Shown piece by piece: positions 8,424 through 25,913 of a stretch of 61,472 nt of DNA. Under the pieces are notes generated by a model. That model saw only the letters and a program-made list of their open reading frames with translations. It searched no databases and had not been told where the DNA came from. Position 1 is the first letter of the stretch; each line of letters opens with the position of its first letter. This DNA comes from Candidatus Acidiferrales bacterium (lineage in GTDB: Bacteria; Verrucomicrobiota; Verrucomicrobiia; Limisphaerales; UBA11358): assembly GCA_035499615.1 (NCBI GenBank), contig DATJYM010000341.1, positions 1 to 61,472 of the forward strand. The letters are read 5' to 3'. The position numbers and the translations under genes are program-made.

Positions 8424-9152
8424 TCAAGGCAAGGCCGGGGAGGAGGGGGTAACTTGCGTACGATCTTTGGCGGAATCCAGGGCGCCTTCCGGTTTCTGTG
8501 CAACAATGAAGAACTGTTTTCCCCAAAAACGCCAGGCCCATGGAATTTTCAAGTACAGTTTGAGTAAATAAATCGGATACTGGACTCCGCGGGCCATCGT
8601 ATAAGGCAGAAATCTATCGACACAGCGAATCATTTCGAAGCCGTGAATTTTTAGTCCTTCCACCAGCGACGTTTCTGTTAATGGAAGATAGTGATCCCAA
8701 AAATCCCAATAGGCTCCCGGCAAGTATTTAATATTGGGTCCCAACGCAATCAGCTTTCCGCCGGGTCTTAGGGAACGAAATGCCTGTTCCAACGTCGAGG
8801 CCAGCGCTGGTTTGCCCGGAAGATGCTCAAAAAAGTTGCTGGTAAAAACCACGTCCAACGAGCCTTGGGCAAGATTCCAGGGGGTGGAACAATCCTGCTG
8901 CAAAAATCGAACATCAGCTGATAATCGTTTGGCCGTATCCGGATTCATATCCATCCCAAATTTGATACGACAGCGAGCATTGTTAATAAACTCTCCGTAA
9001 CCGCAGCCAATATCCAATACTGCCGCATCAAGCGGAATATAAGTTTGCATGAAATCATCGATCAAAACCCGCCAGACGCGATTGCGATAATTTTGTTTGC
9101 CCTTAAATCGTTGATCGTAAATAGCAGCCAACTCGTTTTCGCCGTGAGTCAT
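8424..9152 (-). CDS. Class I SAM-dependent methyltransferase
   Basis: 242 aa. VLDIGCGYGEF is SAM motif I and LRPGGKLIALGP is the post-I/II region. It overlaps the upstream GT2 gene by 4 nt. Confidence 0.8.
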   Translation of the reverse strand: MTHGENELAAIYDQRFKGKQNYRNRVWRVLIDDFMQTYIPLDAAVLDIGCGYGEFINNARCRIKFGMDMNPDTAKRLSADVRFLQQDCSTPWNLAQGSLDVVFTSNFFEHLPGKPALASTLEQAFRSLRPGGKLIALGPNIKYLPGAYWDFWDHYLPLTETSLVEGLKIHGFEMIRCVDRFLPYTMARGVQYPIYLLKLYLKIPWAWRFWGKQFFIVAQKPEGALDSAKDRTQVTPSSPALP

Positions 9153-9925
9153 AGTTTTTTACGATAATCACCCCGGCTGAAGTATTTTTCCAGCCAAACG
9201 TAAAGGCAGATAAAAAGATAACGGCTGCCCATTTCCTTGATCTTTAATTTCGGGGTTCCGGTCCGGCGATTGTGCCACGTGATGGGTATCATTGTCCACG
9301 AAAACCCGCGAACGATGGCCTTGAGTGGCAATTCCACCGTCAGATTGAAGTGTGGCGAAATCAAAGGCCGGCAACCGTCGATGACCTCGCGCCGATAAGC
9401 CTTGAATGCATTGGTGGTATCGTTGAGTTTGATTCCAAACAGAACCCGGATGAACAGATTGGCCAGACGATTGAGCAATAGTTTAAAGTGCGGATAATCA
9501 ATCACGCCGCCGCCTGCGGCAAACCGGGTTCCGAATACACAATCATAACCTTCGCCCAGCCGTTTCCAATATCTGACCACGTCGCGACAGTCATCCGATT
9601 CGTCAGCCATCATGATGACGAAGGCGTCACCTCGCGAGTGGTCCAGGCCCTGGATCACGGCGCGTCCGAAACCATGTGGTGCTGAATTTTGGCATGGATA
9701 AAGTTCCGGAACCTCGTTTTTCAATCTGGACAGAATCATCCAGGTGGCATCGGTGCTGCCGTCATCCACCACGACAATTTCATGCGGAACATTTTGCAGG
9801 CGCAGCTCCAGATGCAAATGCTCGACCGTCGAGGCGATACAACCCTCTTCGTCGCGGGCGGGAATCACCACAGACAATAATTTAAGCTCAGGGCTGTTGG
9901 GATTGGGTGGGGGACTTTCCATCAA
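9149..9925 (-). CDS. Family 2 glycosyltransferase, polyprenyl-phosphate sugar synthase (DPM1/GtrB)-like
   Basis: 258 aa with LSVVIPARDEEGCI, VVVDDGSTDAT and MMADESDD (DXD-like region). Confidence 0.8.
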   Translation of the reverse strand: MMESPPPNPNSPELKLLSVVIPARDEEGCIASTVEHLHLELRLQNVPHEIVVVDDGSTDATWMILSRLKNEVPELYPCQNSAPHGFGRAVIQGLDHSRGDAFVIMMADESDDCRDVVRYWKRLGEGYDCVFGTRFAAGGGVIDYPHFKLLLNRLANLFIRVLFGIKLNDTTNAFKAYRREVIDGCRPLISPHFNLTVELPLKAIVRGFSWTMIPITWHNRRTGTPKLKIKEMGSRYLFICLYVWLEKYFSRGDYRKKL

Positions 9926-10095
9926 ACTAGGACGTTTCAGGCAAGTGTGGAGTTATTCAACGCAATTGGCAACCACGACAAATGTCTTCGAAAGCAACCT
10001 ACCCATGAGCAAATTATTATATAAAAAGCTGAGATTCTTCAAGAAAGACAGTCAGGCAATCAACAAGCTGTCGAATTTGGGGGACAGTGTGAAAA

Positions 10096-11163
10096 TTATT
10101 TTTTGGATGCCGTTGTCGGCCATGATGGGTCGATCTTGACGCCGAATTGGAACAGGCGTTTCACATCCGCCCAGCGGCCAAACTTAAAGCGGAAAAAATT
10201 CCTGAAAATCCACCAATCTCCATGTAGCCGAATCAAACGATTTTTCCTCCGTTGCTCCAGGATGTGTTGTCGCAAACGCCAGCAGTCCGCCAGCGGTCTA
10301 AGCAGTGCCTGGTAAAAGAACGAAAATCGCCGCGTCAGACAGGTGCCCACAACCGCTTCGGTAGCGATCAGGGCGGCTTGGCTCAGCGCCAGCAAAAGAA
10401 GCAGAGACCGCGCATTTTTTAGAATGACCAGAAGCTGGTTGCGGTTTGCATAAAAACGTTTTGTCTCATTTGTCCGATTTTCCAGAGCGCGTTCACCCGA
10501 TGAGGCGCCTTGATGATGAATGTGTGCGCAGGGGATCGATTTGATTGATTCGCCCGCGATCCAGGCGCGCCACGACAAGTCCATCTCCTCATTATAAAGA
10601 AAAAGTGTTTCATCGAACCCTTCCAGTTTTTGAAAGAGTTCACGTTCAATGAAGAAGAAGGTCCCAATGGCAAACAACCGTTCACATTTCTCGCCGGGCC
10701 GGGCCGGAATCATGCCGCCGAACAGGTCGAACCCCGAGGCTCCTATCACCTGGAGGTTGTCACTGTCATAATCCAGTACGAGCGGGCCAGCGACTTTTAT
10801 ATCTTCGTCTTCAGCTTGTCGGACAAGTTCTTCCAGGCAGTTCGGTTCCAACCAAACATCGGGGTTTAGAAAGAAAAGATATTTGCCGCGGGCGATATGG
10901 GCGCCGCGATTACTGCCACCCCCGAAGCCATAATTGCCACCGGTCTGGAGAAAGACTCCATTCGGCCACGCCGCCATCTCTCTTTCACAAATTTCCGCCG
11001 AGCCATCCTGAGACGTGTTATCCACCATAATGACTTCGGTGCGGTCGAAAATCGTTTGCGCCCGCAACGCGGGAAAAAAACGGTCGAGCCATTTTTTGCA
11101 GTTGTAGTTCACGACCACAACACTGACAAGAAAGGGCTGAATCGTATTGCCTGACGAACTCAT
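10096..11163 (-). CDS. Family 2 glycosyltransferase (rhamnosyltransferase-like)
   Basis: The tracked ORF extends to a GTG at 11196, which would give a 4-nt overlap with the upstream gene. I use the ATG at 11163 (MSSSGNTIQPFLVSVVVVNYN) and the start remains uncertain. It carries VDNTSQDGS and FFLNPDV motifs. Confidence 0.8.
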   Translation of the reverse strand: MSSSGNTIQPFLVSVVVVNYNCKKWLDRFFPALRAQTIFDRTEVIMVDNTSQDGSAEICEREMAAWPNGVFLQTGGNYGFGGGSNRGAHIARGKYLFFLNPDVWLEPNCLEELVRQAEDEDIKVAGPLVLDYDSDNLQVIGASGFDLFGGMIPARPGEKCERLFAIGTFFFIERELFQKLEGFDETLFLYNEEMDLSWRAWIAGESIKSIPCAHIHHQGASSGERALENRTNETKRFYANRNQLLVILKNARSLLLLLALSQAALIATEAVVGTCLTRRFSFFYQALLRPLADCWRLRQHILEQRRKNRLIRLHGDWWIFRNFFRFKFGRWADVKRLFQFGVKIDPSWPTTASKK

Positions 11164-11192
11164 TTTGCAGTGACAGTTTTCCCTCCGGACCC

Positions 11193-12440
11193 TCACGCCG
11201 TAAATTCTACAATTTTGGGTTCAGGAATAGGCACGATAAATCTTCCGCCGCGCTTTTGATATTCGGTTTCGCGTCCAACAATTTCCGGGGCGAAATTCCA
11301 CGCGAGCAACAATGCAAAGTCCGGCTGTTCCTTGAGCAAGGTTTCCGGCGGGCGGATCGGCAGCCGTGAGCCGGGCGCGACTTTGTCCTGCTTGAAAGGT
11401 GTGTTGTCGATGATGTAGTCGAGTTCCTTTGTGCCCAGACCGCAGGTGTTGAGCAGCGTGTTTCCCTTTGCGGACGCACCGTAGCCGATGATGCGCTTCC
11501 CCTGTGACTTGAGGCTCCGGAGGAGGATGGGCAATTGCGTGCGGACGCGGTCAACCCTTTCGGTAAACTTTCTCCAGGTGGTGGGATCGGCCAGGTTCAT
11601 AAGGCGTTCCACTTCCAGTGCCTTCGCGACGCTTTCATGGATCGCAACTTTTGACGAGCGGTGGCGCAGATGAAATAAAATCGAACCGCCGTGAATCTGA
11701 TAATGGTCAATCCGGGACAAGGCAAACGGCGAATCTTTCACCAGGGCCGCCAGCGCGCGAACCGAAATGTAGGACAAGTGCTCGTGATAAATCGTGTCGT
11801 ATTCCGTGCGCTCGAAGAAATCAACAAGATAAGGCACCTCAAAAGCAATGAGTGTCTCCTGGTGCGAGACGGCTTCCAATCCGGCGAGCAAATCGCGCAG
11901 ATCGTCAATGTGCGCGAAAACGTGCCGGCCCAAAATCAGATCCGCCTTGCCCCATTCCGCTTTGATTTTTATCGCATTGGCAGCGTTAAAAAATTCGCTC
12001 CGGGTCGGGATGCCGGACTTTATCGCCACCTCACAGATATTTTCCGCCGGTTCCACACCTAGAACATCGCAGCCGCGTTCCTTGAACTTCTTCAGAAATA
12101 CTCCGGTATTGCTGGCAATTTCCAAAATCTTTGGCCGCGCGCCAAAATGACCGACGGACAGGAGGTGTGCCGATTGATCGTTCAAGTGCGCCTCCATCGT
12201 GCGGGAAGTTGAAGTGATATAAGCGTAGCGCGAGTAGAGAACTTTCGGGTCAACGGTATCGGCCAGTTGTACCAGGGAACAATCCCGGCACAGCACCACG
12301 CGCAGCGGCAGTGAGGTTTTATAATTTGCGACTTCCCCCGGATCAAGAAAGTCATTGGCCAGTGCGGTGCTGCCGAGATCGAGAATGAGCCGGAGATTCT
12401 TCGAGCCGCAGGTGCGGCAATGGGTTCGTTCACGAATCAT
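11193..12440 (-). CDS. NDP-sugar C-methyltransferase (TylCIII/EryBIII-type: Zn-ribbon + SAM domain + C-methyltransferase C-terminal domain)
   Basis: 415 aa. The N-terminus has CRTCGS...CRDCS (CxxC x2) and the SAM fold shows ILEIASNTGVFL. The C-terminal region reads GKRIIGYGASAKGNTLLN...IIDNTPFKQDK...FIVPIP. Confidence 0.75.
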   Translation of the reverse strand: MIRERTHCRTCGSKNLRLILDLGSTALANDFLDPGEVANYKTSLPLRVVLCRDCSLVQLADTVDPKVLYSRYAYITSTSRTMEAHLNDQSAHLLSVGHFGARPKILEIASNTGVFLKKFKERGCDVLGVEPAENICEVAIKSGIPTRSEFFNAANAIKIKAEWGKADLILGRHVFAHIDDLRDLLAGLEAVSHQETLIAFEVPYLVDFFERTEYDTIYHEHLSYISVRALAALVKDSPFALSRIDHYQIHGGSILFHLRHRSSKVAIHESVAKALEVERLMNLADPTTWRKFTERVDRVRTQLPILLRSLKSQGKRIIGYGASAKGNTLLNTCGLGTKELDYIIDNTPFKQDKVAPGSRLPIRPPETLLKEQPDFALLLAWNFAPEIVGRETEYQKRGGRFIVPIPEPKIVEFTA

Positions 12441-12952
12441 GATTCAAGGAGGCGGTAGGGCGAATGTGGATCCAGTTCATGGCGGATTTCATCCACTGGC
12501 TCGCGGCGGCCCTCGCCCTTGAAGAGGAGACTGGTGACGGTTACGACCACGCCCGGCCCGGTGCCGATATTGCGATAGGCGTGAACCACGCCACGCGGAA
12601 CGTAAACGCGCGATGGCGTGCTCGCGCCGGTATTAATGATCCAGCCTTTGGCCGCCTTGGCAGAACCAGGGCGGTCGTCCCACAAATACACACGAAAATC
12701 CGATGGGCCGGCAAAAACGAAATAATCGTCCTGAAAAACGTGTTGATGCGGTCCGCGCGTCACCCCGGGATTTGACCAGGAGCAGCAGGCCATAACCGGC
12801 TTAAACTCCTCCGGAATTTCGTCTGAACGATACAATTCGTGAAGACTGCCGCGAGGGTCCGGGAAGACCGGCAAGGCTTCCACACGCACGCCGGGCAAGC
12901 CGGAAACCTCAACAACCCCGCGGACTTCGACATGTTGCCAACTGGTGGTCAT
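12437..12952 (-). CDS. RmlC-like cupin, NDP-4-keto-sugar 3,5-epimerase family
   Basis: 171 aa with FPDPRGSLHELY, SWSNPGVTRGPHQH and VYVPRGVVHAYRN. It overlaps the downstream C-methyltransferase gene by 4 nt. Confidence 0.7.
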   Translation of the reverse strand: MTTSWQHVEVRGVVEVSGLPGVRVEALPVFPDPRGSLHELYRSDEIPEEFKPVMACCSWSNPGVTRGPHQHVFQDDYFVFAGPSDFRVYLWDDRPGSAKAAKGWIINTGASTPSRVYVPRGVVHAYRNIGTGPGVVVTVTSLLFKGEGRREPVDEIRHELDPHSPYRLLES

Positions 12953-12973
12953 GTCTGTGCAGACTACCTCATA

Positions 12974-13843
12974 TCACTTCATTTGAGCGAGCATTTTTCG
13001 CAGGCCCGGGCGCCATGAACCCGGCCGGTGGCCGAGCAATTTGGCCAGCTTTTCGTTGCTCAACACGGTGTAAGTTGGGCGGCGCATGGTCGAATTGAAA
13101 AACGCACTGGTCACCTTTTGAACGGGGGGCACTTGCGGAATCAACCCCGCCTGCACCGCCTCCTCCAATATAACCAGTGTCCAGTCATGGCGGCTTACGC
13201 CTTCGTCATTGACCGCGTGAACCAAACCCGCGGCGCCCTGGCGAATCAATTCCAGGGTCCACTGCGCAAGATCGGAAGCAAAAGTCGGTGTCGACGCCTG
13301 GTCAGTTGTGGCCTTCAATTCGCCTGGTTCACGAGCTCCGCGCAGCGCCGTATGCACGAAGGTTTTTGTTTGTGTTGGATGCCCGCCAAAGACCCAACTC
13401 GTTCTCAGGACCAGATGTTTCGCGGAGGCACGTAACACGGCCTGTTCACCCGCGAGTTTTCCGGCGGCATAGTGATTCAGCGGATTCGGCGCGTCGGTTT
13501 CGAGGTAAGGGGATCTCTTTTCACCGTCAAAAACGTAATCCGTTCCGTAATGAACGAGGCGGATGCCGGCGTGCGCGCAAAATTCCGCAAGTCGCTCCGG
13601 ACCGGTCGCGTTGACATTCCATGACAGTTCGCGCTCAATTTCGCAACGGTCCACCTGATTATATGCCGCAGTGTTAATGACGACCTGCGGATCCATCTTG
13701 GCCAATTGCGCCTGCATGCGTGCCGGCGCAGTTAAATCGAAATCTGAACGGGAAAGAAAAATAAGATTGCAATCCAGCGGCTGGAGCCTGCGGAAGGCGT
13801 GCGCAATCAATCCATCTCCGCCGGTTACCAGGATTTTGAGCAT
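12974..13843 (-). CDS. rfbD: NDP-4-dehydro-sugar reductase, dTDP-4-dehydrorhamnose reductase (RmlD) family
   Basis: 289 aa with MLKILVTGGDGLIAHAF, NTAAYNQVDRCE, YAAGKLAGE (YxxxK) and TSWVFG. Confidence 0.75.
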   Translation of the reverse strand: MLKILVTGGDGLIAHAFRRLQPLDCNLIFLSRSDFDLTAPARMQAQLAKMDPQVVINTAAYNQVDRCEIERELSWNVNATGPERLAEFCAHAGIRLVHYGTDYVFDGEKRSPYLETDAPNPLNHYAAGKLAGEQAVLRASAKHLVLRTSWVFGGHPTQTKTFVHTALRGAREPGELKATTDQASTPTFASDLAQWTLELIRQGAAGLVHAVNDEGVSRHDWTLVILEEAVQAGLIPQVPPVQKVTSAFFNSTMRRPTYTVLSNEKLAKLLGHRPGSWRPGLRKMLAQMK

Positions 13844-13913
13844 GCCTCAGCCTGCCAGAGTGCGTTTTCCCGGCAAAGCCGGTTTTTTATCCGATTGAAT
13901 TATTCAAATCGGT

Positions 13914-14756
13914 TCAGTCCGCTGACAGCGGGGAAACCCGTTTACCAGCCTTTTTGCATGTCAGAAATGATTGTTCCTCGTTATGGCGGACAAATTGGTA
14001 AAATTTGAGGTGGAGGGAGACGGGCTCCATTTCGGGATGTGTTTTGGAGAGCCACTGTTGCCATTGGTCATTCGTCCATTTGGTTTGATGCAAGTCAACT
14101 CCGTCATGAACGTCCGGAGCCGAGGTGGTCGAGGCGATAAAGTAACCGCCGGCTTCCAGGTGGCTGACAATGTTGTCGAAAAGTTGCGGCAGATCCTGAG
14201 TGGGAATGTGTTCCAGAACCTCCCACATCGTGATCAGATGGAATCTGGCAGGCTGACCGTCGACGGTGATTTTGAAAGGCTTGGCGACATCGCAGGTAAA
14301 CAAATTTTTCCCTGCCAACGCGGGCCAGTTGGCGCGGCCATGCTTGAGCGAAAAATCCGATCCTTCGAGGCCGACAGCCAGCCAGCCCAGGCTGCGAAAA
14401 TCCGCCACGAGCTGCCCGCCGGAGCAACCCAGATCCAAAGCCCCGCAGGTTGCCCCGGGGAATTCGCGTTCGATACGCTTGAGCATGACGCTGACAAATT
14501 TTTTGTTGGTGCTGTTGTCGCGGCTGGTGCCCCAGGGAATCAAATGATCCGGCGATGCAAAGGCCACCGCATGCTGGGTTTCCAATCGGATGGCATGATC
14601 AACCGGAGCCGGCCGCCTGCCAAAAATCCGGAAGCGCAGGAAAAAAATCCATTCCTGAATGAGTTTATAGCAGCGCATCCAGGCATCAGCGAACAGGTAC
14701 TTTGTCTTGCCCGCACGAATTAATTCCCATGCCCAGGAAACACCGGGGATTCGCAT
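13914..14756 (-). CDS. Class I SAM-dependent methyltransferase
   Basis: 280 aa with ALDLGCSGGQLV (motif I) and LEAGGYFIAST. Confidence 0.75.
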   Translation of the reverse strand: MRIPGVSWAWELIRAGKTKYLFADAWMRCYKLIQEWIFFLRFRIFGRRPAPVDHAIRLETQHAVAFASPDHLIPWGTSRDNSTNKKFVSVMLKRIEREFPGATCGALDLGCSGGQLVADFRSLGWLAVGLEGSDFSLKHGRANWPALAGKNLFTCDVAKPFKITVDGQPARFHLITMWEVLEHIPTQDLPQLFDNIVSHLEAGGYFIASTTSAPDVHDGVDLHQTKWTNDQWQQWLSKTHPEMEPVSLHLKFYQFVRHNEEQSFLTCKKAGKRVSPLSAD

Positions 14757-14768
14757 AAATTCGATTGG

Positions 14769-15506
14769 TTACCGTTTCGCCCTCAAAATGACGGCCAACT
14801 GCTCTTCATTGCGGGCATAGCCGATATATTCGACCGAGTAACCCGTCCGGCCCAGAAACTCCGTGAACGCCTTGTGTTCGCCCTGTTCCCATTCCGGATA
14901 ATTGAAATACTCGTCAAAAACGATCACGGCGCCGGGTTTCAGACGCGGTTCGAGCAATTCGAAAATGGTCTTGGCAGACGAATAGAGGTCGCTGTCCACG
15001 TGGAGAAAACCCACATCCCCGGAATTCTGTTTTAGAAAGCCGGGCAACGTTTCATTGAACCAACCTTTAACCAACGTGACATTCCGGCGCACCTTGGGCA
15101 GTTTGGGAACGGCAAACGCCCCAACCTTCCAGCCATCCCACCAGCGTTCGGGTAACCCTTCAAAAGAATCGAAGCCAAAAACGCGTTGCTCGGTCATTTT
15201 GGCGAGGTGGTTGATGGACATGCCCATGAAAACTCCGAACTCACAAATCAGCCGGTCACCTGAAACATCCGCGAGTTTGAAGGCTTTGGTCAGCAACTCT
15301 TTTTTTGATCCGGTCGAATCCACCAGGCGCAAATTCTGTTCCACAAAATCCACGGTTGTGGCCAAGGCGCGCCGCTGGCGTTCCAGCGGGATGTTTTTGA
15401 GCTCCTGATTTCGTGTAAAGTTCAGCCCATGCCTGGCGATCAATGACGCCAGAACGACTCCTTTGAACAGGAATTTTCTCATTCTGAACACCAGATTTTT
15501 GTACAT
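14769..15506 (-). CDS. TylF/MycF-like (macrocin O-methyltransferase family) SAM-dependent methyltransferase
   Basis: The tracked ORF runs to 15956, but the region upstream of 15682 overlaps the GT4 gene. I use the ATG at 15506 (MYKNLVF...); 15521 is the alternative. Motifs are EFGVFMGMSINHL, DSFEGLPE and LHVDSDLYSSAKTIFELLEPRLKPGAVIVFDEY. Confidence 0.7.
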   Translation of the reverse strand: MYKNLVFRMRKFLFKGVVLASLIARHGLNFTRNQELKNIPLERQRRALATTVDFVEQNLRLVDSTGSKKELLTKAFKLADVSGDRLICEFGVFMGMSINHLAKMTEQRVFGFDSFEGLPERWWDGWKVGAFAVPKLPKVRRNVTLVKGWFNETLPGFLKQNSGDVGFLHVDSDLYSSAKTIFELLEPRLKPGAVIVFDEYFNYPEWEQGEHKAFTEFLGRTGYSVEYIGYARNEEQLAVILRAKR

Positions 15507-15681
15507 AGAGTTTCCCCTCATCAAATCCCAAATGAGGCAAAAAGGAAAGCACTGTTTCAAGGCAGACACCGTGTTCGATTGCGATAAACGTTGGCATTCT
15601 TCACTCAAAAGCCTGAAGTGATCGCCGGGGGCGAAGTAGTTCTCGCATGAAACCTGATTGTCTTTGAGGCACACTGCCGGC

Positions 15682-16863
15682 TCAAAGACTTTCCAGTGCC
15701 TGGACAAACTTCGTCTGTGTGGTCTCCCAGGAATTATTGCGTTTGAAATCGACCAGACTGCGGGCATCCAGGTGGTGGTTGCCGGCGCGCATTGCTTGAA
15801 TTTCGCGCAGCGCGGCTTGTTGGAAAGCTCCGAGGTTAAAGGGCGGCGCATAGCGGACAAAATCGCCGAATAACGGACGGTAGTTGGGGATGTCGTAGGC
15901 CACAACCGGTGTGCCGGCGAGGATGCTCTCGCCGATAACGCGCGGGCTGCCCTCATGCCGGCTCGGCATCAGAAACACCCGGCTGGCCTTGAATAAACGA
16001 GTTTTTTCCGTTTCACTGACGAAACCGCTGAACTCCACCCGGTCTTCCAGGCCGTTTTTTTTCACCTGCGGCAAAAGCTCGTCCCGCACGTTGCCGATCA
16101 AAACGGCACGAAAATTCTCCAGGCTCCGGGCCAGTTGCACGAGCGTGGCCAGCAGATCATCAATACCCTTTTGCCGATGCACCCGGCCAATCCAAACGAC
16201 ATCGTAAACGCGTGCTTGCGCCGGTACGGCGTCCGTGGTGGCTACGTCTATTCCATAGGACACCAAAGTCATTTCCTCGTCGCGGACGCCGAGTTTTCGC
16301 AGGCGCGGTTCCATGAGTGGATGCAGATACAGGAGGCGCTTGGCGGCGCACCGGGCAAAACGGCGCACCGACCATTCCTGACTGGCCCAGTAATGCAGCG
16401 ACGCCAGGCGCCACGGATCAATGTCAGGACGACTGCGCATGATAACCTGGCTCAATCCGGGCGCCTCCATGTGAAGTACCATCAGCTTTCGGCGGGCCGG
16501 GCTTCTGACGGCCGGCAAGACATCAAACCAATAATCGCTCACGGCATACACAAAATCGTTGGGCGCGATGTGATTGAAAAGCCCCAGCATACGTCGATAA
16601 CGGCGATAAAAATCGCGGAACATGGCGAATTGGCCGACGAGTGCGCCCTGGTTCACCTTGCCCATTTGAGCCTCATCCGTCAGGGTGACCGTGCCGGGCA
16701 GTTTGTGTTGGGCAATTACCTTGGCGAGCGCATGACCACCAAAAAAGTTCAACTCGTAACCCGCCTGACCAGCCGCCTCGGCCAGCTTTAGAAAATGAAT
16801 ATCGCCTCCGGCGATACGGGTGCTGAAAATGCCGTTGGAGATAAAATGGATTTTTCCGCGCAC
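15682..16863 (-). CDS. GT4-family (GT-B fold) glycosyltransferase
   Basis: 393 aa. The C-terminal half reads VFLMPSRHEGSPRVIGESILAGTPVVAYD, the E-x7-E type motif region. Confidence 0.85.
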   Translation of the reverse strand: MRGKIHFISNGIFSTRIAGGDIHFLKLAEAAGQAGYELNFFGGHALAKVIAQHKLPGTVTLTDEAQMGKVNQGALVGQFAMFRDFYRRYRRMLGLFNHIAPNDFVYAVSDYWFDVLPAVRSPARRKLMVLHMEAPGLSQVIMRSRPDIDPWRLASLHYWASQEWSVRRFARCAAKRLLYLHPLMEPRLRKLGVRDEEMTLVSYGIDVATTDAVPAQARVYDVVWIGRVHRQKGIDDLLATLVQLARSLENFRAVLIGNVRDELLPQVKKNGLEDRVEFSGFVSETEKTRLFKASRVFLMPSRHEGSPRVIGESILAGTPVVAYDIPNYRPLFGDFVRYAPPFNLGAFQQAALREIQAMRAGNHHLDARSLVDFKRNNSWETTQTKFVQALESL

Positions 16864-19418: not shown

Positions 19419-20390
19419 ATGGAAAAAGTCTTTGTTACCGGCGCGGCTGGGTTCATTGGCAGCAACCTCGTAGACCGGCTTTTGGCTGATGGCAAGACGG
19501 TGATTGGTTGGGACAATTTCTCCACCGGCCAGAATGAATTTCTCCCCGATGCCCTCAAAAATCCGGGTTTCAAACTCATCAAAGGAGACAACCTCGACCA
19601 GCCGGGGTTAAAAAAAGCGATGGCCGGGTGCGATTTTGTCTTCCATCTGGCGGCGAATGCCGACGTCCGCTTTGGTCTCGACCACCCCCAAAAGGATTTT
19701 CAACAAAATGCCATGGCCACGTTCAATGTGCTCGAAGCCATGCGGGCCAATGGCATCCAGCGCATCGGATTCAGTTCCACGGGTTCGATTTATGGAGAAG
19801 CCGGGACCATACCGACGCCGGAAAATGCGCCGTTTCCGGTGCAAACTTCCCTGTATGCGGCTTCGAAGCTGGCCGGCGAAGGTTTCATCAATGCTTATTG
19901 TGAAGGCTACGGTTTTGAAGGCTATGTTTTCCGTTTTGTCTCCATTCTCGGTGAACGCTATACGCACGGCCACGTCCTCGATTTCTACAAACAATTGGTC
20001 ATCCACCCCGACCATTTGAAAATTCTCGGCGATGGTTCGCAACGGAAATCCTACCTCTATGTTGGTGATTGTCTCACAGCCATGCTTCAGGTCATTGCGC
20101 AAGGCGTGGCGAAAAAAGCCAAACATCGCGTTGAAACCTACAATCTCGGCACCGATGAATATGTTCAGGTCAACGACTCCGTCCGGATTATCTGCAATCT
20201 GCTTGGGCTCAAGCCCAAGCTGGAATATTCCGGCGGCAACAAAGGCTGGGTGGGCGACAATCCGTTCATTTTTCTCGATACCACGAAAATCCGCGCCACC
20301 GGTTGGAAAACCACGCTGACTATCGAGCAAAGCATTGTGCGCACTTTGCAATGGCTTCAAAAGAATCCATGGTTGTTCCAACGCCGATGA
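19419..20390 (+). CDS. NAD-dependent epimerase/dehydratase (extended SDR, UDP-glucose 4-epimerase-like)
   Basis: 323 aa with MEKVFVTGAAGFIGSNLV, SSTGSIYG and YAASK (YxxxK). Confidence 0.85.
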   Translation: MEKVFVTGAAGFIGSNLVDRLLADGKTVIGWDNFSTGQNEFLPDALKNPGFKLIKGDNLDQPGLKKAMAGCDFVFHLAANADVRFGLDHPQKDFQQNAMATFNVLEAMRANGIQRIGFSSTGSIYGEAGTIPTPENAPFPVQTSLYAASKLAGEGFINAYCEGYGFEGYVFRFVSILGERYTHGHVLDFYKQLVIHPDHLKILGDGSQRKSYLYVGDCLTAMLQVIAQGVAKKAKHRVETYNLGTDEYVQVNDSVRIICNLLGLKPKLEYSGGNKGWVGDNPFIFLDTTKIRATGWKTTLTIEQSIVRTLQWLQKNPWLFQRR

Positions 20391-21190
20391 ACCTTGTCAT
20401 CACCGGAAGCAGCAGCGGCATCGGCCGGTTTCTCGCGGATTCGCTCGCGAAGCGCGGTCATGAAATCTGCCGGGTCGCACGTTCGCCGCAGAGCGGCTTC
20501 AGTTTTCAATGTGACGTGTCGGACTGGCAGGCGCAGCAAATCTGTGCAGAGGGAATTGCGGCGAAATGGAATGCGGTGGACGGACTGATCTGCTGTGCCG
20601 GGACGCAGGAACCCATCGGGCCGGCGATGGAAACGGACCCTGCGGCCTGGCGTTCGGCGCTGGCGGTGAATCTCGACGGTACCTTTTTCTCCATTCGCAT
20701 TTTGTTCCCCTTGCTGTGCCGTGCCCGACGTCGCGCGAAGGTGATTTGCTTTTCCGGCGGCGGTTCCACTGGCCCGCGCCCGAATTTCGCCGCGTATGGC
20801 ACTGCCAAATCCGGCATCGTCCGCCTTGTCGAGACCCTCGCCGTTGAATGGGAGAAATTACCGGTCGACATCAATGCCGTCGCCCCCGGCGCGATTTTTA
20901 CGCGCATGACGGAGCAGATTCTGGCCCGTGGCGAAAAACTGGCCGGAAAAAAAGAATTCGAATCTGCCAGTAATCTTTCACGCGACAATTCGGACAAGTT
21001 GAGCAAGGTGCTGGGTCTCGTGGAATTTCTGCTCTCGGAGAAGAGCGACGGCATCAGGGGCAAGCTTATCAGCGCGCAGTGGGATCCATGGGAAAGACTC
21101 CTGGAATACAAGTCCGATCTGAACAGTGACATTTATACATTGCGCCGCATCGTACCTGCAGACCGGGGAAAGCAGTGGAGCGCTCAATGA
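20387..21190 (+). CDS. Classical short-chain dehydrogenase/reductase
   Basis: The ATG at 20387 forms an ATGA overlap with the preceding stop. Motifs are MNLVITGSSSGIGRFLA (TGxxxGIG), YGTAK (YxxxK) and NAVAPG. Confidence 0.8.
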   Translation: MNLVITGSSSGIGRFLADSLAKRGHEICRVARSPQSGFSFQCDVSDWQAQQICAEGIAAKWNAVDGLICCAGTQEPIGPAMETDPAAWRSALAVNLDGTFFSIRILFPLLCRARRRAKVICFSGGGSTGPRPNFAAYGTAKSGIVRLVETLAVEWEKLPVDINAVAPGAIFTRMTEQILARGEKLAGKKEFESASNLSRDNSDKLSKVLGLVEFLLSEKSDGIRGKLISAQWDPWERLLEYKSDLNSDIYTLRRIVPADRGKQWSAQ

Positions 21191-22194
21191 ACTACGCCAT
21201 CATCGGATGCGGATTGATTGGAAGGAAAAGACTCGCCGGATTGCCGGCGGATTCGAAACTGGTTGTTGCCTGCGACACGAACTTGGCCCGCGCCGAAGAG
21301 CTGGTGAAGCTCGCAAACACAGGTCGCGCCGTGACTGATTTCAGACAAGCCGTTGCTGATCCGCAGGTGGACGGGGTGATTGTCGCAACCATCAACTCCG
21401 CGCTCGCCGAAGTTTCTGCCGCCGCCATTCACTCCGGCAAACATGTGCTGGCGGAGAAACCGGCAGGTGTTTCCGTTTCCCAGGTTGAGGCGTTAATCGC
21501 GCTGGCCGAGAAGCACAACGTTTGCGTCCGCGTTGGCTTCAATCATCGTTATCATCCGGCCTTTATCCTGGCACGGGAGATTTTCAAATCCGGTGTGATG
21601 GGTGAATTAATGTTTATTCGCGCGCGTTACGGTCACGGAGGGCGCATTGGTTATGACAAGGAATGGCGCGCCGAACCGGAGCTTTCGGGCGGTGGAGAAT
21701 TGATTGACCAGGGCGTTCATCTGATTGACCTGGCCGGCTGGTTCCTGGGTGATTTTTCCAAAGTGGAAGGCCTCGCCACAACTTATTTTTGGGATATGCC
21801 GGTCGACGATAATGCGTTTCTAAGCCTGCGCACAACCCGGGGCCAGATCGCGTGGCTGCACGTCAGTTGCACCGAATGGAAGAATCTTTTCTCATTTGAA
21901 ATATACGGACGCAACGCCAAGCTGCACATTGAGGGCCTCGGCGGAAGTTATGGCCCGGAAAAACTGTATCATTACCAGATGAAAGCGGAAATGGGGCCGC
22001 CTGACACCAAGGTCTATGAGTTTTCCGGCCCGGACGGGTCATGGCGGGCCGAATTGGCTGACTTTGAGCGGGATGTCCAATTGAAGAAAAAATCGGATGC
22101 CGGGTTAAAAGAAGCGAAAACCGCCCTGCAAATCGTTGAGGAAATCTACCAGAAAAGCGGGTTTAACTTTGACTCCTCATCGACAAAACCTTAA
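21187..22194 (+). CDS. Gfo/Idh/MocA-family NAD(P)-dependent oxidoreductase
   Basis: The ATG at 21187 forms an ATGA overlap. MNYAIIGCGLIGRKR and HVLAEKP (EKP motif) are present. Confidence 0.85.
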   Translation: MNYAIIGCGLIGRKRLAGLPADSKLVVACDTNLARAEELVKLANTGRAVTDFRQAVADPQVDGVIVATINSALAEVSAAAIHSGKHVLAEKPAGVSVSQVEALIALAEKHNVCVRVGFNHRYHPAFILAREIFKSGVMGELMFIRARYGHGGRIGYDKEWRAEPELSGGGELIDQGVHLIDLAGWFLGDFSKVEGLATTYFWDMPVDDNAFLSLRTTRGQIAWLHVSCTEWKNLFSFEIYGRNAKLHIEGLGGSYGPEKLYHYQMKAEMGPPDTKVYEFSGPDGSWRAELADFERDVQLKKKSDAGLKEAKTALQIVEEIYQKSGFNFDSSSTKP

Positions 22195-22235
22195 ATCGTT
22201 GTGCGCGAAACCCGGACATCAGTTCCCAATTTGAA

Positions 22236-23216
22236 ATGATCATCGCACGCTCTCCACTTCGCGTCACACTCGGCGGTGGCGGAACGGACTTGCCGTCGTA
22301 CTATCAAAATTTCGGCGGTTTTCTCATCGCTGCCGCCATTGACAAGTATGTTTACCTCACGCTCCACGACAACTTTACCCCCGATTTGATTCTGAAATAT
22401 TCACGGCTCGAACGCGTGGCGGACGCGGGCAAGGTTGAACATCCGATCATTCGCGAAGCGTTCGCCATGCTCGAAATGAACGGCTGCGGATTGGAACTGG
22501 CTTCCCTGGCTGATATTCCCGCCGGTACGGGCCTGGGTTCGTCCGGCAGTTTTACGACCGCCTTGCTTAAGGTGCTGCACGCCTATAAGAAAAATCTTGT
22601 TCATCCCGCCGAGCTGGCCGCCCAGGCCTGTGAGATTGAACTCAATCGCCTCCGAGAACCCATCGGCAAGCAGGACCAATACATCGCCGCCTACGGCGGG
22701 GTCACCTGTTTCCAATTTGCGCCGGATGGCAAGGTGGCGGCGTGGCCACTGAAAATTTCCGATGAAACGCGCGACAACCTCGAAGATAATCTATTGTTAT
22801 TCTTTACCGGATATTCGCGATCGGCCTCGGCCATTTTGAAAGAGCAGGACCAGAAATCAAAACAGTCGGATGCGGCCATGATTGAAAACCTGCACTTCGT
22901 CAAGGATCTCGGTTTGCAGAGCCGGCGCGCGCTTGAAGCTGGAAATTTGCCGGAGTTCGCCCGGCTCATGGACGTGCATTGGCAGCGCAAAAAACAGCGC
23001 AGCGGTGGCATGAGCAACCCGAAAATCAATGAGTGGTATGACCTGGCCACGGCCAATGGTGCGCTCGGCGGTAAACTCATCGGTGCGGGCGGCGGTGGTT
23101 TTCTAATGTTCTACGCCGAAGACAAAGCCCGGCTGCGCCAGGCCATGCGCCAGGCCGGCCTTAAGGAAGTCCGGTTCCGATTTGACTTCGAAGGCACCAA
23201 GCTGTTGATTTCGTGA
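22236..23216 (+). CDS. hddA: GHMP-family sugar kinase, D-glycero-alpha-D-manno-heptose 7-phosphate kinase-like
   Basis: 326 aa with ARSPLRVTLGGGGTDLPSYY, PAGTGLGSSGS (GHMP motif II) and GAGGGGFL. It sits directly upstream of hddC-gmhA-gmhB. Confidence 0.8.
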   Translation: MIIARSPLRVTLGGGGTDLPSYYQNFGGFLIAAAIDKYVYLTLHDNFTPDLILKYSRLERVADAGKVEHPIIREAFAMLEMNGCGLELASLADIPAGTGLGSSGSFTTALLKVLHAYKKNLVHPAELAAQACEIELNRLREPIGKQDQYIAAYGGVTCFQFAPDGKVAAWPLKISDETRDNLEDNLLLFFTGYSRSASAILKEQDQKSKQSDAAMIENLHFVKDLGLQSRRALEAGNLPEFARLMDVHWQRKKQRSGGMSNPKINEWYDLATANGALGGKLIGAGGGGFLMFYAEDKARLRQAMRQAGLKEVRFRFDFEGTKLLIS

Positions 23217-23929
23217 GTGCGCCGCTCGAGATCCCTGTGGCCATTCTCGCCGGCGGGCTGGCGACACGACTGCGGCCCATTACGGAAAAAATCCCCAAAT
23301 CCCTGATAGTGGTGGCGGGGAAGCCGTTTCTGGCGCATCAGCTGGAACTCCTGCGTTCGCGCGGCATTGGTCGCGTCGTATTGTGTGTCGGCCATCTGGG
23401 CGGGATGATTCAGCGCGAATTCGGAGACGGTTCGGCGTTTGGGGTACGCCTTGATTATTCGTTTGATGGTCCCCAATTACTCGGCACCGGTGGCGCGCTC
23501 AAACGAGCACTGCCGTTGCTGGGAGGCGAGTTTTTTGTGCTCTATGGCGATTCCTATCTGGCGGTGGAATATCGCCCGGTGGCGGAATTTTTCCGCCGCA
23601 GCCGCAAACCGGGTTGCATGACGGTCTATCGCAATGAAGGCCGTTACGACACAAGCAACGTTGTCTTCCGCGACGGTGAAGTCGCCGTTTACGATAAAAA
23701 AAATCGCCTGCCGGAAATGCGGCATATCGATTACGGATTAAGCCTGTTCAAGTCCGCCGTCTTCGATACGTACCCTCCGGACCTGCCGTTCGACCTGGCT
23801 GAAGTAATGGGCAAACTCGTTCGCGAAAAACAACTGGCCGGTTACGAAGTCCGCGAGCGCTTTTACGAAATGGGTTCGCCTGCGGGCTTGGCGGAGCTGG
23901 AAACGCTGTTACAATCAAAATCAACATGA
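23213..23929 (+). CDS. hddC: Sugar-1-phosphate nucleotidyltransferase, D-glycero-alpha-D-manno-heptose 1-phosphate guanylyltransferase-like
   Basis: The GTG start overlaps the hddA stop (GTGA). VAILAGGLATRLRPITEKIPKSL is the G-x-G-x-R-L signature and LGTGGAL is also present. Confidence 0.75.
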   Translation: MSAPLEIPVAILAGGLATRLRPITEKIPKSLIVVAGKPFLAHQLELLRSRGIGRVVLCVGHLGGMIQREFGDGSAFGVRLDYSFDGPQLLGTGGALKRALPLLGGEFFVLYGDSYLAVEYRPVAEFFRRSRKPGCMTVYRNEGRYDTSNVVFRDGEVAVYDKKNRLPEMRHIDYGLSLFKSAVFDTYPPDLPFDLAEVMGKLVREKQLAGYEVRERFYEMGSPAGLAELETLLQSKST

Positions 23930-24522
23930 GCTTTAGCCAACAATTCCTTGATGAAGTCCAAAAGGTTGTCGCCCGGTTAAACGTTGACGCCATCGAAAAG
24001 GCCGCCGATGAACTGGCGCGCGTGCGCGAACGCGGCGGGCGCTTGTTCATCCTTGGCGTTGGTGGCAGTGCGGGGAATGCCAGCCACGCCGTGAATGACT
24101 TCCGCAAAATTTGCGGTTTTGAGGCTTACGCGCCCACGGATAACGTTTCCGAGCTGACCGCGCGCACCAACGACGAAGGCTGGGCAACGATTTTTGCCGA
24201 ATGGCTAAAAGGCAGTCGTCTGTCGGCAAAAGACGGTCTGCTGATTTTTTCCGTGGGCGGTGGTAATTTGGAGAAGAATGTCAGTCCGAATCTCGTCAGC
24301 GCCATTCAACTTGCTAAAAAGGCCGGGGCTTCCGTTGTGGGAGTGGTTGGTCGCGACGGCGGTTACACGGCCCACGAGGCAACGGCCTGTGTGGTTGTTC
24401 CGACGGTAAATCCGGCGCACGTCACGCCCCACAGCGAGGCGTTCCAGGCCGTTATCTGGCATTTGTTTGTATCGCATCCCAAATTGAAAGTCGCGCAGAC
24501 CAAATGGGAATCCACCAAATAG
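23926..24522 (+). CDS. gmhA: SIS-domain phosphoheptose isomerase
   Basis: The start forms an ATGA overlap. Motifs are RLFILGVGGSAGNASHAVNDF, FSVGGG and VPTVNPAHVTPHSE. Confidence 0.85.
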   Translation: MSFSQQFLDEVQKVVARLNVDAIEKAADELARVRERGGRLFILGVGGSAGNASHAVNDFRKICGFEAYAPTDNVSELTARTNDEGWATIFAEWLKGSRLSAKDGLLIFSVGGGNLEKNVSPNLVSAIQLAKKAGASVVGVVGRDGGYTAHEATACVVVPTVNPAHVTPHSEAFQAVIWHLFVSHPKLKVAQTKWESTK

Positions 24523-24564
24523 ATTTTTCGTAGCAGCCGACGCAAGGAGGCTCCAACATTTCCA

Positions 24565-25155
24565 TTGAACCGGATTGAACCAACGAGTCAGAGCCTCCTC
24601 ACATCGGCTGCTAAAAAATTGCGCCGTGCTGTTTTCCTCGACCGCGATGGTGTCATCAACCGTGCCTGGCAGCGGGATGGCAAACCGTATCCTTCGGCAA
24701 CCTTGGGTGAATTTGAGATTTTCCCGGAAGTACCGGAAGCCTGCCGTCGCTTGAAAGAGGCCGGCTTTTTGCTGATCGTGGCCACCAACCAGCCGGATGT
24801 CGGTCGCGGTACTTTGAAACAGGAGGCGGTCGAAGACATTCACGCCGAAATGCGCCGGCGGCTGCCGCTGGACCGGGTGGAGGTTTGCTATCATCCGGGT
24901 AAAGGTCTGTCAGATTGTGATTGCCGCAAACCAAAGCCGGGCATGTTGTTGCGTGCCGCACGTGAACTGGGCATTGATCTGGCACAGAGCTGGATGGTGG
25001 GCGACCGCTGGCGCGACGTGGATTGCGGTCACGCCGCCGGTTGCCGGACCATTTTCATTGATCGCGGTTATGCCGAGGAATTGAAACAATCACCCGATTT
25101 TCGCGCTGAAAATCTGCTGGTCGCAGCCGAAATTATCCTCGTCCGCGCAAATTAA
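24565..25155 (+). CDS. gmhB: HAD-IIIA D,D-heptose 1,7-bisphosphate phosphatase
   Basis: The TTG start lies 13 nt after AAGGAGG (24545-24551). Motifs are AVFLDRDGVIN, VATNQPDVGRG, CDCRKPKPGML and MVGDRWRD. Confidence 0.85.
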   Translation: MNRIEPTSQSLLTSAAKKLRRAVFLDRDGVINRAWQRDGKPYPSATLGEFEIFPEVPEACRRLKEAGFLLIVATNQPDVGRGTLKQEAVEDIHAEMRRRLPLDRVEVCYHPGKGLSDCDCRKPKPGMLLRAARELGIDLAQSWMVGDRWRDVDCGHAAGCRTIFIDRGYAEELKQSPDFRAENLLVAAEIILVRAN

Positions 25156-25193
25156 GTTGAAGATTCGTGCGATTGTTTTATCTTGTGAGCCAC

Positions 25194-25913
25194 ATGAAAA
25201 ACCTGGCCAGCCTCAAAGTGAAAATTTTCGCGGATGGCGCGGATAAAGCCGGAATGCTGCAGTTGAACACCAACCCGCTCATCAAGGGCATGACCACCAA
25301 TCCTTCGCTCATGCGCAAGGCCGGTGTGCATGATTACGAGGCGTTCGCGCGCGACATCTTGAAAAGCATCACGGAAAAGCCGATTTCATTTGAAGTCTTT
25401 TCCGACGAGTTTCCCGAAATGCGGCGGCAGGCGATGAAAATCAAAGACTGGGCCAGGAATGTCTATGTCAAAATTCCCATCACGAACACGCGCGCCGAGT
25501 CTTCCTTGCCGCTCGTACGCGAACTGGCTCAGGAGGGCGTGAAGCTTAATATCACCGCCATGTTTACCGAGGAACAGGTGACCGGCGTGGCCAAGGCGCT
25601 CAATCCCAAGGTGCCCGCCGTGGTGTCGGTATTTGCCGGCCGCATTGCAGATGTGGGAGAGGACCCGATGCCACACATGCGCAATGCGAATAAAATCCTC
25701 GCGGGGCTGCCACAGGCCGAGTTGCTTTGGGCCAGCGTTCGTGAAGTGCTCAATATTTTTCAAGCCGAGGAATGCGGCTGTAAAATTGTGACCGTGCCGC
25801 ATGACATTCTGAACAAGGCGATGAAGCTGGTGGGAACCGGTTTGCCGGAAATGTCGCTGGACACCGTGAAAATGTTTGCCGTTGACGCCAAGGCGGCAGG
25901 ATTTTCGTTGTAG
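25194..25913 (+). CDS. Transaldolase-family protein (short, fructose-6-phosphate aldolase-like type)
   Basis: I use the ATG at 25194; the tracked GTG is at 25167. Motifs are KIFADGAD, GMTTNPSL and VYVKIPIT (Schiff-base Lys region). Confidence 0.8.
   Translation: MKNLASLKVKIFADGADKAGMLQLNTNPLIKGMTTNPSLMRKAGVHDYEAFARDILKSITEKPISFEVFSDEFPEMRRQAMKIKDWARNVYVKIPITNTRAESSLPLVRELAQEGVKLNITAMFTEEQVTGVAKALNPKVPAVVSVFAGRIADVGEDPMPHMRNANKILAGLPQAELLWASVREVLNIFQAEECGCKIVTVPHDILNKAMKLVGTGLPEMSLDTVKMFAVDAKAAGFSL

Follow-up and report, generated by a model that had tools for sequence, protein, structure and literature searches.

A Candidate C-Methyl-Branched Deoxysugar Cassette in a Surface Glycan Locus of Limisphaerales-Type Verrucomicrobiota

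Introduction

Which sugar is made by a gene cluster that encodes, side by side, enzymes to C-methylate, epimerize and reduce a nucleotide-linked keto sugar, when the enzymes that would supply this keto sugar are not found in the same region? This question is raised by three adjoining genes in a stretch of 61,472 nt from Candidatus Acidiferrales bacterium (assembly GCA_035499615.1, contig DATJYM010000341.1, positions 1 to 61,472), hereafter the window. These genes, which we call the trio, lie on the minus strand and encode a C-methyltransferase of 415 amino acids (aa), a cupin of 171 aa related to RmlC and an RmlD-type reductase of 289 aa (Table 1). An earlier prediction made from the letters of the window (the original prediction) had proposed that the trio tailors guanosine diphosphate (GDP)-heptose and had named, as an alternative, a 6-deoxyhexose nucleotide made by genes elsewhere. 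The evidence presented here favors this alternative. We consider it probable that the trio, together with rmlA and rmlB located elsewhere in the genome, makes a deoxythymidine diphosphate (dTDP)-linked 6-deoxy-C-methyl-L-hexose, probably the 3-C-methyl sugar, which is then transferred and O-methylated.

Enzymes of the Trio

The three open reading frames (ORFs) are found where the original prediction had placed them and they are tightly packed. The C-methyltransferase and cupin ORFs overlap by 4 nt (12437-12440, reading ATGA on the coding strand) and a gap of 21 nt (12953-12973) separates the cupin from the reductase. All three sit inside a long and tight string of minus-strand genes (6206-19348) that also holds four glycosyltransferases, three further methyltransferases and polytopic membrane proteins. 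The family assignments proposed earlier for the three proteins hold in profile searches and PDB matches and, for the cupin, in AlphaFold and Foldseek comparisons.

The 415-aa protein is a full-architecture nucleoside diphosphate (NDP)-hexose C-methyltransferase. Its Pfam matches comprise the zinc domain Methyltransf_13 (PF08421, 72 bits), Methyltransf_23 (PF13489, 52 bits) and PF08484 (182 bits), the latter spanning positions 2-160 of the 160 positions of the profile, and the four cysteines of the zinc domain are found in two CxxC pairs (C8/C11 and C51/C54). PF08421 and PF08484 place the protein within the sugar C-methyltransferase family, a membership on which the original prediction depended. 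In the PDB search, it matched MtmC (4rv9) with E = 7.5e-103 across residues 3-411, followed by KijD1 (6e-80) and TcaB9 (1e-73). The blocks FAHIDD (at 175) and YHEH (at 218), which we take to correspond to catalytic residues of TcaB9, lie in stretches that are identical in MtmC ("vfahidd" and "dtiyhehlsyi"). These three structurally characterized relatives (E < 1e-70) are all C3-methyltransferases, and methylation at C3 is favored for this reason. The nearest characterized C-methyltransferases among the PDB matches all use dTDP-sugars.

The 289-aa protein scores 279 bits against the rmlD model TIGR01214, whose equivalog cut-off is 224, and 261 bits against PF04321. Its strongest PDB matches are RmlDs (1kbz, 7e-41), and none of its PDB matches with E ≤ 1e-3 is of the MlghC, DdahC or Cj1428 type, i.e., a C4-reductase of Campylobacter heptose. 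The catalytic Thr/Tyr/Lys are found in GTDYVF (around residue 101) and Y125-AAG-K129. The protein keeps 25 of the 37 positions that are invariant among RmlDs from rml operons, and it is changed at Q11L, G13A, S103G, G159T and N161T, which concern the glycine-rich loop and residues 159-161. Clustered changes of this kind would fit a modified substrate.

The 171-aa protein is much harder to place by sequence: it narrowly passes the cut-off of PF00908 (dTDP_sugar_isom; 30.1 bits versus 27), it has no match in NCBIfam, and its best PDB sequence match is weak (E = 0.09). Its AlphaFold (AF2) model, with a predicted local distance difference test score (pLDDT) of 82.9, is an RmlC-fold cupin. The top Foldseek match is RmlC 1ep0 (2.9e-9; TM 0.66); RmlC-type matches further include 2ixl (TM 0.71), and NovW and ChmJ were also retrieved. 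The top matches listed all have the RmlC fold and are either cupin epimerases or isomerases or artificial proteins. The cupin was also considered as an FdtA-type 3,4-ketoisomerase, based on its RGPHQH motif and a weak Pfam match to FdtA (E = 0.0096). This assignment was not adopted and we read the protein as a probable epimerase, because RmlC-type structures lead the fold matches, with FdtD only at rank 43, and because the family sits in rml operons.

Conservation of the Cassette

A reference scan in which each GTDB species was represented by a single genome yielded 78 cupin loci, which were probed with the window proteins and with E. coli reference enzymes over flanks of up to ±10 kb. We refer to 39 of these reference genomes, mostly verrucomicrobial and with cupins of at least 59% identity, as clade A. 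The RmlD-like gene is located directly upstream of the cupin in 37 of the 39 and the C-methyltransferase directly downstream in 36. In addition, the distance from the cupin to the start of the C-methyltransferase equals that of the window in 32 of the 38 clade-A loci that were scored, which is consistent with the 4-nt overlap. Beyond this set, hundreds of cupin homologues with 70-88% identity are found in metagenome-assembled genomes of Verrucomicrobiota/Limisphaerales. Because of these homologues and of the gene order conserved in the 39 reference genomes, the genes of the trio can be considered real.

A different setting was observed in the other 36 loci, which belong to Planctomycetota, Ignavibacteriota, Bacteroidota, Myxococcota and one Luteolibacter, and whose cupins share 43-54% identity with that of the window. 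The C-methyltransferase is absent from all 36. In 25 of them, rmlA and/or rmlB is found at most 1.5 kb from the cupin, typically in the order cupin-rmlA-rmlD-rmlB, and the products of these rmlA and rmlB genes share 38-65% identity with their E. coli counterparts. A classical rmlC was not detected in the fetched flanks of these loci. Given this proximity to rmlA/rmlB and the lack of a classical rmlC, the cupin family appears to fill the rmlC slot of dTDP-L-rhamnose operons. The clade-A cupins, including that of the window, differ in that they are flanked by the RmlD-like gene and the C-methyltransferase, not by rmlA/rmlB, and are not fused to RmlB.

Natural gene fusions point in the same direction. 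A HMMER search over 1.84 billion representatives yielded 551 members of the cupin family. Among these, P0134, P0140 and P0144 (483-525 aa) are fusions of RmlB and the cupin whose RmlB part is 44-54% identical to E. coli RmlB and carries the motif STDEVYG, and P0125 (601 aa) is a fusion of the C-methyltransferase and the cupin. The cupin family is therefore connected with C-methyltransferases as well as with the RmlB product. P0150 and P0216 were also listed among the fusions of this family; the type that joins the cupin to a short-chain dehydrogenase/reductase (SDR) with a TDE motif measures 515-523 aa.

Some Limisphaerales genomes encode a second, paralogous C-methyltransferase with the full Pfam architecture (29-40% identity), which was found in L019 (3800-8000) and L028 (14870-17700). 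In both loci it adjoins an SDR of the CDP-glucose-4,6-dehydratase type (CDP, cytidine diphosphate; motif T[TS]DK[VC]YEN), accompanied by a nucleotidyltransferase in L019 and by a classical RmlC-like gene in L028. An SDR of the same type is present at ~10300 in L035. The paralogous C-methyltransferase appears to use CDP-sugars and seems to form, with its dehydratase, a C-methyl sugar cluster of its own. C-methyltransferases that require a special precursor thus bring their own dehydratase, which the trio never does, and the trio therefore appears to rely on a housekeeping supply made elsewhere.

Residue Changes in the Cupin

The 171-aa protein falls into an RmlC family that is non-canonical and uncurated and that we define here, with QxDxF and VDEIRHEL as its motifs. 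The core D32, R34, E39, R66-G-P-H69, H71, Q74, D76, H124, Y126, N128 and V153-DEIRHE is invariant in all clades, and the cupin of the window carries it completely. H69 aligns with the histidine of the RGLH motif in the RmlCs of E. coli and S. tokodaii. For comparison, the residues of canonical RmlC are, in the numbering that we take to apply, His63 (the base), Lys73 and Tyr133 (enolate stabilizer/proton donor). The equivalent of Tyr133 may be position 138 or 144; the hhalign alignment of the cupin with E. coli RmlC, which reached only 30% probability, ended before this region.

The clades differ at a limited number of positions, each of them constant inside a given clade apart from the exceptions noted below. 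Clade A presents S36, C56, Q70, T138, T140 and F144 where the others present W36, Y56, E70, N138, P140 and Y144. The strand that follows H124 contains no Tyr, and Y56 and Y144, the family tyrosines that are candidates for the role, are replaced by C56 and F144 in clade A. Among the cupins coupled to a C-methyltransferase, C56 is found in 42 of 42 and F144 in 39 of 42, with three clade-A members retaining Y144. The Y56/N138/Y144 state, on the other hand, is found in 97 of the 117 family representatives that could be scored and in every RmlB fusion. The C-methyltransferase fusion P0125, which is an independent case, has a clade-B background and presents T56 and F144. Both tyrosines have thus been lost in two lineages, each partnered with a C-methyltransferase. 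Once C3 (or C5) has become quaternary, a single epimerizable center is left and part of the proton-transfer apparatus would therefore be dispensable. The loss of Y56 and Y144 suggests that the clade-A cupin may be a mono-epimerase.

Search for Feeder Enzymes

We then examined whether the window encodes enzymes that could supply a substrate. The 61 kb were searched by tblastn with E. coli RmlA, RmlB, RmlC, Gmd, Fcl, ManB, ManC and GalF. No match to RmlA, ManB or ManC was obtained, the best "RmlB" match (28% identity) is actually a GalE-like SDR, and the window has no Gmd. The absence of RmlA and RmlB from the 61 kb, stated by the original prediction, was upheld by this search and by Pfam. A Pfam scan of the remaining 33 kb of the window returned unrelated functions only and no sugar-nucleotide gene.

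For the extended SDRs of the window, NCBIfam and PDB scores were obtained and the active-site motifs were compared by alignment with E. coli RmlB, Gmd, RmlD and Fcl. The acid pair of 4,6-dehydratases (T-D/S-E motif) is absent from all three. The SDR at 19419-20390 presents SSTGSIYGE and its best PDB matches are archaeal UDP-hexose 4-epimerases (UDP, uridine diphosphate; 3ehe, 5e-75). The SDR at 6206-7237 (minus strand) resembles CDP-tyvelose 2-epimerase, with STNKVYGD and PDB matches 9rl0 and 1orr at E ~1e-41. The SDR at 5109-6188 presents STSRVYS and its type is not assignable. None of them was retained as a dehydratase. Similarly, the nucleotidyltransferase at 23213-23929 was rejected as a candidate RmlA, since it scores 113 bits for MurU, 86 for ManC, 86 for HddC and only 38 for rmlA.

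The SDR at 6206-7237 has FGASK at its catalytic YxxxK site, a change of Tyr to Phe. The same change was observed in its homologues in L012, L026 and L064, one of which lies 2 kb from a planctomycete rmlB.

Proposed Pathway and Known Systems

We infer the dTDP nucleotide, a location of rmlA and rmlB elsewhere, the regiochemistry, the order of the steps, the stereochemistry of the product and the acceptor glycan as follows. RmlA and RmlB would supply dTDP-4-keto-6-deoxy-D-glucose. The C-methyltransferase would use S-adenosylmethionine (SAM), deprotonating and methylating the carbon beside the 4-keto group; C3 is the likeliest site (the enzyme being MtmC-, KijD1-, TcaB9- and TylCIII-like) and C5 would be the alternative, as for NovU. 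His69 of the cupin would epimerize the remaining enolizable center, which would be C5 if C3 is quaternary, and the cupin would then act as a mono-epimerase. The RmlD-type enzyme would reduce C4 with NAD(P)H to yield a dTDP sugar of the 3-C-methyl-L-rhamnose or 6-deoxy-L-talose type. The co-transcribed GT2 glycosyltransferase (10096-11196) would probably transfer this C-methyl sugar and the neighboring methyltransferases would probably O-methylate it. The end product may be a nogalose-, vinelose- or noviose-like residue of a surface glycan that also contains heptose.

The logic of such a pathway is that of the mycarose-, nogalose- or noviose-type branched-chain deoxysugar cassettes and is already known. 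In actinomycetes, the branches leading to dTDP-L-mycarose and L-nogalose use the same three enzyme types on an NDP-4-keto-6-deoxyhexose: the C-methyltransferase TylCIII, MtmC or SnogG2, the epimerase TylK or SnogF, and the 4-ketoreductase TylCIV or SnogC, followed by O-methyltransferases. The C-methyltransferase of the window matches MtmC over its full length, and several methyltransferases lie near the nogalose genes as they do near the trio. However, the trio belongs to a locus for a cell-surface glycan in Verrucomicrobiota rather than to a cluster for secondary metabolites; it has neither linked rmlA/rmlB nor a 2,3-dehydratase, and its epimerase comes from another, non-canonical RmlC family. 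Relative to the dTDP-L-rhamnose pathway (RmlA-D), the trio shares the RmlD equivalog, the RmlC fold and the catalytic histidine (H69, equivalent to His63), but a C-methyltransferase is inserted, rmlA/rmlB are unlinked, and the cupin lacks Lys73 and the two family tyrosines. What is new is the setting and one of the components: a lineage-wide surface-glycan cassette in Limisphaerales-type Verrucomicrobiota that is detached from rmlA/rmlB and uses a non-canonical RmlC family.

If the dTDP-6-deoxy-C-methyl-L-hexose reading is true, a C-branched and probably O-methylated 6-deoxy sugar would be a lineage-wide surface component of Limisphaerales-type Verrucomicrobiota. These bacteria are abundant in soil and freshwater, have mostly escaped cultivation and have an envelope chemistry that is essentially unknown. 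To our knowledge, C-branched deoxy sugars are otherwise found mainly in antibiotics and in a few pathogens such as Coxiella. The uncurated RmlC-like family itself apparently replaces the classical RmlC in the rhamnose operons of several phyla, and its conserved tyrosines are not those of canonical RmlC. The family is relevant to genome annotation, since NCBIfam lacks a corresponding model and Pfam recognizes it only just. Finally, the loss of the tyrosines in two lineages constitutes a natural experiment that could reveal how a double epimerase is converted into a mono-epimerase.

Heptose Genes near the Trio

A heptose-nucleotide operon is divergently oriented to the gene string that contains the trio (Table 1). 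Four heptose domain types are present in it and adjacent to one another, including an HddA-like GHMP kinase and a GmhA-like SIS protein, and its transaldolase passes TIGR02134. The presence of the HddA, nucleotidyltransferase, GmhA, GmhB and HldC genes was confirmed. However, the equivalog scores in NCBIfam are far under their cut-offs for HddA (161 versus 600 bits), for the nucleotidyltransferase (HddC, 86 versus 300) and for GmhA (45-47 versus 209-320), and the label "GDP" is therefore an assumption.

An orthologous operon is divergent to the trio in six further loci (L003, L007, L008, L010, L011 and L018), and a non-orthologous heptose cluster, composed of a fused nucleotidyltransferase-GmhB and HddA (~4800-8600), abuts the trio in L017 and L022. 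Both versions are headed by an SDR of the same 3ehe/8rdg-like ("GalE-1") subfamily, which suggests a conserved heptose-modifying step that is still uncharacterized. HldC and a GT9 heptosyltransferase further neighbor the trio in the window as well as in L019, L027, L029 and L033. Heptose genes are thus frequent neighbors of the trio, and they probably serve a separate sugar of the same glycan; this is the simplest account of the co-location, since both sugars would enter one glycan.

In L003 (regions 3379-6827 and 15689-17672), a UDP-glucose/GDP-mannose dehydrogenase and a radical-SAM/SPASM protein were additionally found in the heptose operon, and two Gmd-like genes near the trio (see below).

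Alternative Readings

Several observations weigh against the dTDP-6-deoxy-C-methyl-L-hexose reading. Neither rmlA nor rmlB was found in the window, and the ±10 kb around the trio contain neither gene in the 39 clade-A genomes, an absence that also speaks for a heptose substrate. Of the 13 clade-A loci for which the full flanks are available, 5-6 have heptose genes no more than 10 kb from the trio, far above chance. In the cupin, the Lys73 of canonical RmlC is absent family-wide, its slot being occupied by D76 (hhalign) or Y77 (phmmer). The clade-A change W36S, relative to the clade found in rml operons, affects the segment aligned with the DxRGxF strand of RmlC and could reflect an altered substrate. 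The GDP-heptose epimerases Cj1430 and MlghB were matched by Foldseek at ~3e-8, only about tenfold behind RmlC, and Foldseek does not tell dTDP-hexose from GDP-heptose epimerases for this protein. As the cupin has no NCBIfam match, even its epimerase activity is a prediction. The characterized C-methyltransferases closest to that of the trio take 2-deoxy or 3-amino sugars as substrates, and a 2,3-dehydratase is lacking at the trio locus. Lastly, the nucleotide specificity of the three enzymes is itself deduced, not observed.

A different sequence of steps on the same dTDP precursor would give a noviose-type sugar: the cupin would epimerize C3 first, the C-methyltransferase would methylate C5, the reductase would produce a sugar of the 5-C-methyl-L-rhamnose type and a TylF-like enzyme would O-methylate it. 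The trio and its TylF-like neighbor match what we take to be the NovW/NovU/NovS and NovP enzymes of the novobiocin pathway. Moreover, NovW is among the top fold matches of the cupin, a TylF-like methyltransferase recurs beside the trio, and a mono-epimerase is expected in the noviose scheme as well. However, the three relatives of the C-methyltransferase at E < 1e-70 all methylate C3, and we consider this order of events rather unlikely. A change of nucleotide, with a GDP- or CDP-linked 4-keto-6-deoxyhexose supplied by Gmd or CDP-glucose 4,6-dehydratase encoded elsewhere and a virenose- or vinelose-type product, appears to us unlikely. The closest precedent is virenose (6-deoxy-3-C-methylgulose) in the lipopolysaccharide of Coxiella burnetii, likewise a C-methyl 6-deoxyhexose of a Gram-negative surface glycan attributed to a TylCIII-type C-methyltransferase. 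In that literature, GDP and dTDP routes are both considered plausible and the carrier is unsettled; the proposal involves Gmd with an epimerase/reductase of the GDP-fucose synthase type, or a lone 4-ketoreductase, where the trio instead encodes an RmlD along with a distinct cupin. A pair of Gmd-like genes, with 51% and 43% identity to E. coli Gmd, is found at 5 kb from the trio in L003, a CDP-tyvelose-2-epimerase-like SDR is part of the operon of the trio in the window, CDP-glucose-dehydratase-type genes occur in some Limisphaerales genomes, and the fold matches of the cupin include WbcA (5buv), a cupin of the Yersinia enterocolitica O-antigen cluster that presumably acts on a GDP-sugar. Yet L003 is a contig outside the reference set and the only case of Gmd near the trio, as gmd was found in the fetched flanks of none of the 39 clade-A reference genomes; the CDP-type dehydratases pair with their own paralogous C-methyltransferase and not with the trio, and the RmlD-type reductases and the cupin family are otherwise tied to dTDP operons. 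The Gmd-like pair of L003 could be Gmd/Rmd-like or DmhA/DmhB-like.

The proposal that the trio tailors NDP-D-glycero-D-manno-heptose, with the SDR at 19419-20390 or the Gfo/Idh/MocA enzyme oxidizing C4 and the C-methyltransferase, the cupin and the reductase yielding a C-methyl heptose, has the gene neighborhood in its favor: the heptose pathway is divergent to the trio in six loci besides the window, its second version abuts the trio in L017 and L022, and both versions begin with the 3ehe/8rdg-like SDR, which could conceivably oxidize C4. The capsule genes of Campylobacter jejuni (Cj1427, Cj1430/MlghB and Cj1428/MlghC) offer a parallel, since heptose genes are adjacent there too, the logic of a cupin followed by a C4-reductase is the same, and these RmlC-fold cupins act on GDP-4-keto-heptoses and rank among the fold matches of the trio cupin. 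Nevertheless, the cupins share only 16-20% identity, the Campylobacter system itself has no methyltransferase, and in the literature searched C-methyltransferases are not part of the known heptose-tailoring toolbox. The dehydratase motif is absent from the SDRs of the window and from those beside the heptose genes of L017 and L022, and the top 60 PDB matches of the SDR at 19419-20390 are epimerases, decarboxylases and dehydratases among which the C4-dehydrogenase Cj1427 does not appear. The reductase is an RmlD equivalog and not a Campylobacter-type C4-reductase, members of the cupin family occur within rml operons and as RmlB fusions, the closest characterized relatives of the C-methyltransferase use dTDP-sugars, and no heptose-operon gene is present in seven of the 13 clade-A loci whose flanks extend about 10 kb to either side. 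Furthermore, several sugar pathways located together in one glycan locus are the norm. Tailoring of GDP-heptose, the central claim of the original prediction, is thus disfavored, and we regard an NDP-heptose substrate as quite improbable. We are equally skeptical that the remodeled cupin (S36, C56 and F144) and the 3ehe-like SDR were recruited into the heptose pathway to form a C-methyl-branched heptose. If true, C-methyl heptose would be a new sugar class: no C-methyl-branched heptose is described in the literature searched, which yielded nothing usable on heptose C-methylation or on the rhamnose pathways of Pedosphaera-type bacteria.

Neighboring Genes

The features of the locus are listed in Table 1. 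The GT2 glycosyltransferase that follows the C-methyltransferase is the candidate transferase for the C-methyl sugar. Its gene overlaps that of the C-methyltransferase by 4 nt if a GTG start is used, pointing to translational coupling, and a homologue is found near the trio in 27 of the 39 clade-A genomes. It weakly matches the rhamnosyltransferase subfamily TIGR01556 (42 bits, far under the cut-off).

Table 1. Coordinates of the trio and of neighboring features in the window.
Feature	Coordinates	Strand	Profile or structural evidence
NDP-4-keto-hexose C-methyltransferase, TylCIII/MtmC/TcaB9 family, 415 aa	11193..12440	-	PF08421 + PF13489 + PF08484
Non-canonical RmlC-fold cupin, 171 aa; probable 4-keto-6-deoxyhexose mono-epimerase, clade A	12437..12952	-	PF00908, AF2 fold
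RmlD-family NAD(P)H-dependent NDP-4-keto-6-deoxyhexose 4-ketoreductase, 289 aa	12974..13843	-	TIGR01214, PF04321
GT2 glycosyltransferase, candidate transferase for the C-methyl sugar	10096..11196	-	PF00535 (92 bits)
Class I SAM methyltransferase, probable O-methyltransferase	13914..14756	-	PF13489, PF08242
Methyltransf_24/TylF-like methyltransferase, probable sugar O-methyltransferase	14769..15506	-	PF13578 (59 bits), PF05711 TylF (44 bits)
Class I SAM methyltransferase	8424..9152	-	PF08241, PF13489
GT2 resembling polyprenyl-phosphate hexose synthases	9149..9925	-	PF00535
Polytopic membrane protein, 903 aa	2262..4973	-	no Pfam or NCBIfam match
Heptose-nucleotide operon, divergent	19419..25913	+	GalE-like SDR, classical SDR, Gfo/Idh/MocA, HddA-like kinase, nucleotidyltransferase, GmhA-like, GmhB, transaldolase

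The three neighboring methyltransferases of the original prediction were all recovered. The one adjoining the reductase has an orthologue of 84% identity that likewise adjoins RmlD in L010. Orthologues of the TylF-like methyltransferase (247-249 aa; PF04989 RMNT_CmcI and PF13578) are located directly upstream of RmlD in L003, L005 and L006, and a TylF/CmcI-type O-methyltransferase is thus a recurrent immediate neighbor of the trio. The mechanical ORF of this gene (14769-15956, minus strand, 395 aa) runs into a GT4 gene (15682-16863). Based on the extent of the domain and on the lengths of the orthologues, its start is the ATG at 15506 rather than 15956, as had been proposed. The third methyltransferase, at 8424, accompanies the trio in L007, L008 and L010.

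The second GT2 glycosyltransferase, at 9149, presents PgfS, dolichyl-phosphate hexose transferase, AglJ and ArnC-like models as its best NCBIfam matches, all under their cut-offs. The 903-aa membrane protein contains about 10 hydrophobic segments in its N-terminal 540 aa, followed by a large C-terminal domain, and 17 of the 39 clade-A genomes have a homologue in the vicinity of the trio. The protein may represent an undescribed family of membrane glycosyltransferases or polymerases. Together, these two proteins hint at a periplasmic, lipid-linked glycosylation step.

Elsewhere in the window, the ORFs at 30026-34498 (minus strand), 35428-37164 (plus), 58697-60448 (plus) and 54141-55961 (minus) encode a fusion of alpha-amylase and glycogen-debranching enzyme (1490 aa), two paralogous secretion ATPases of the GspE/PilB type and an ASST-type arylsulfotransferase.

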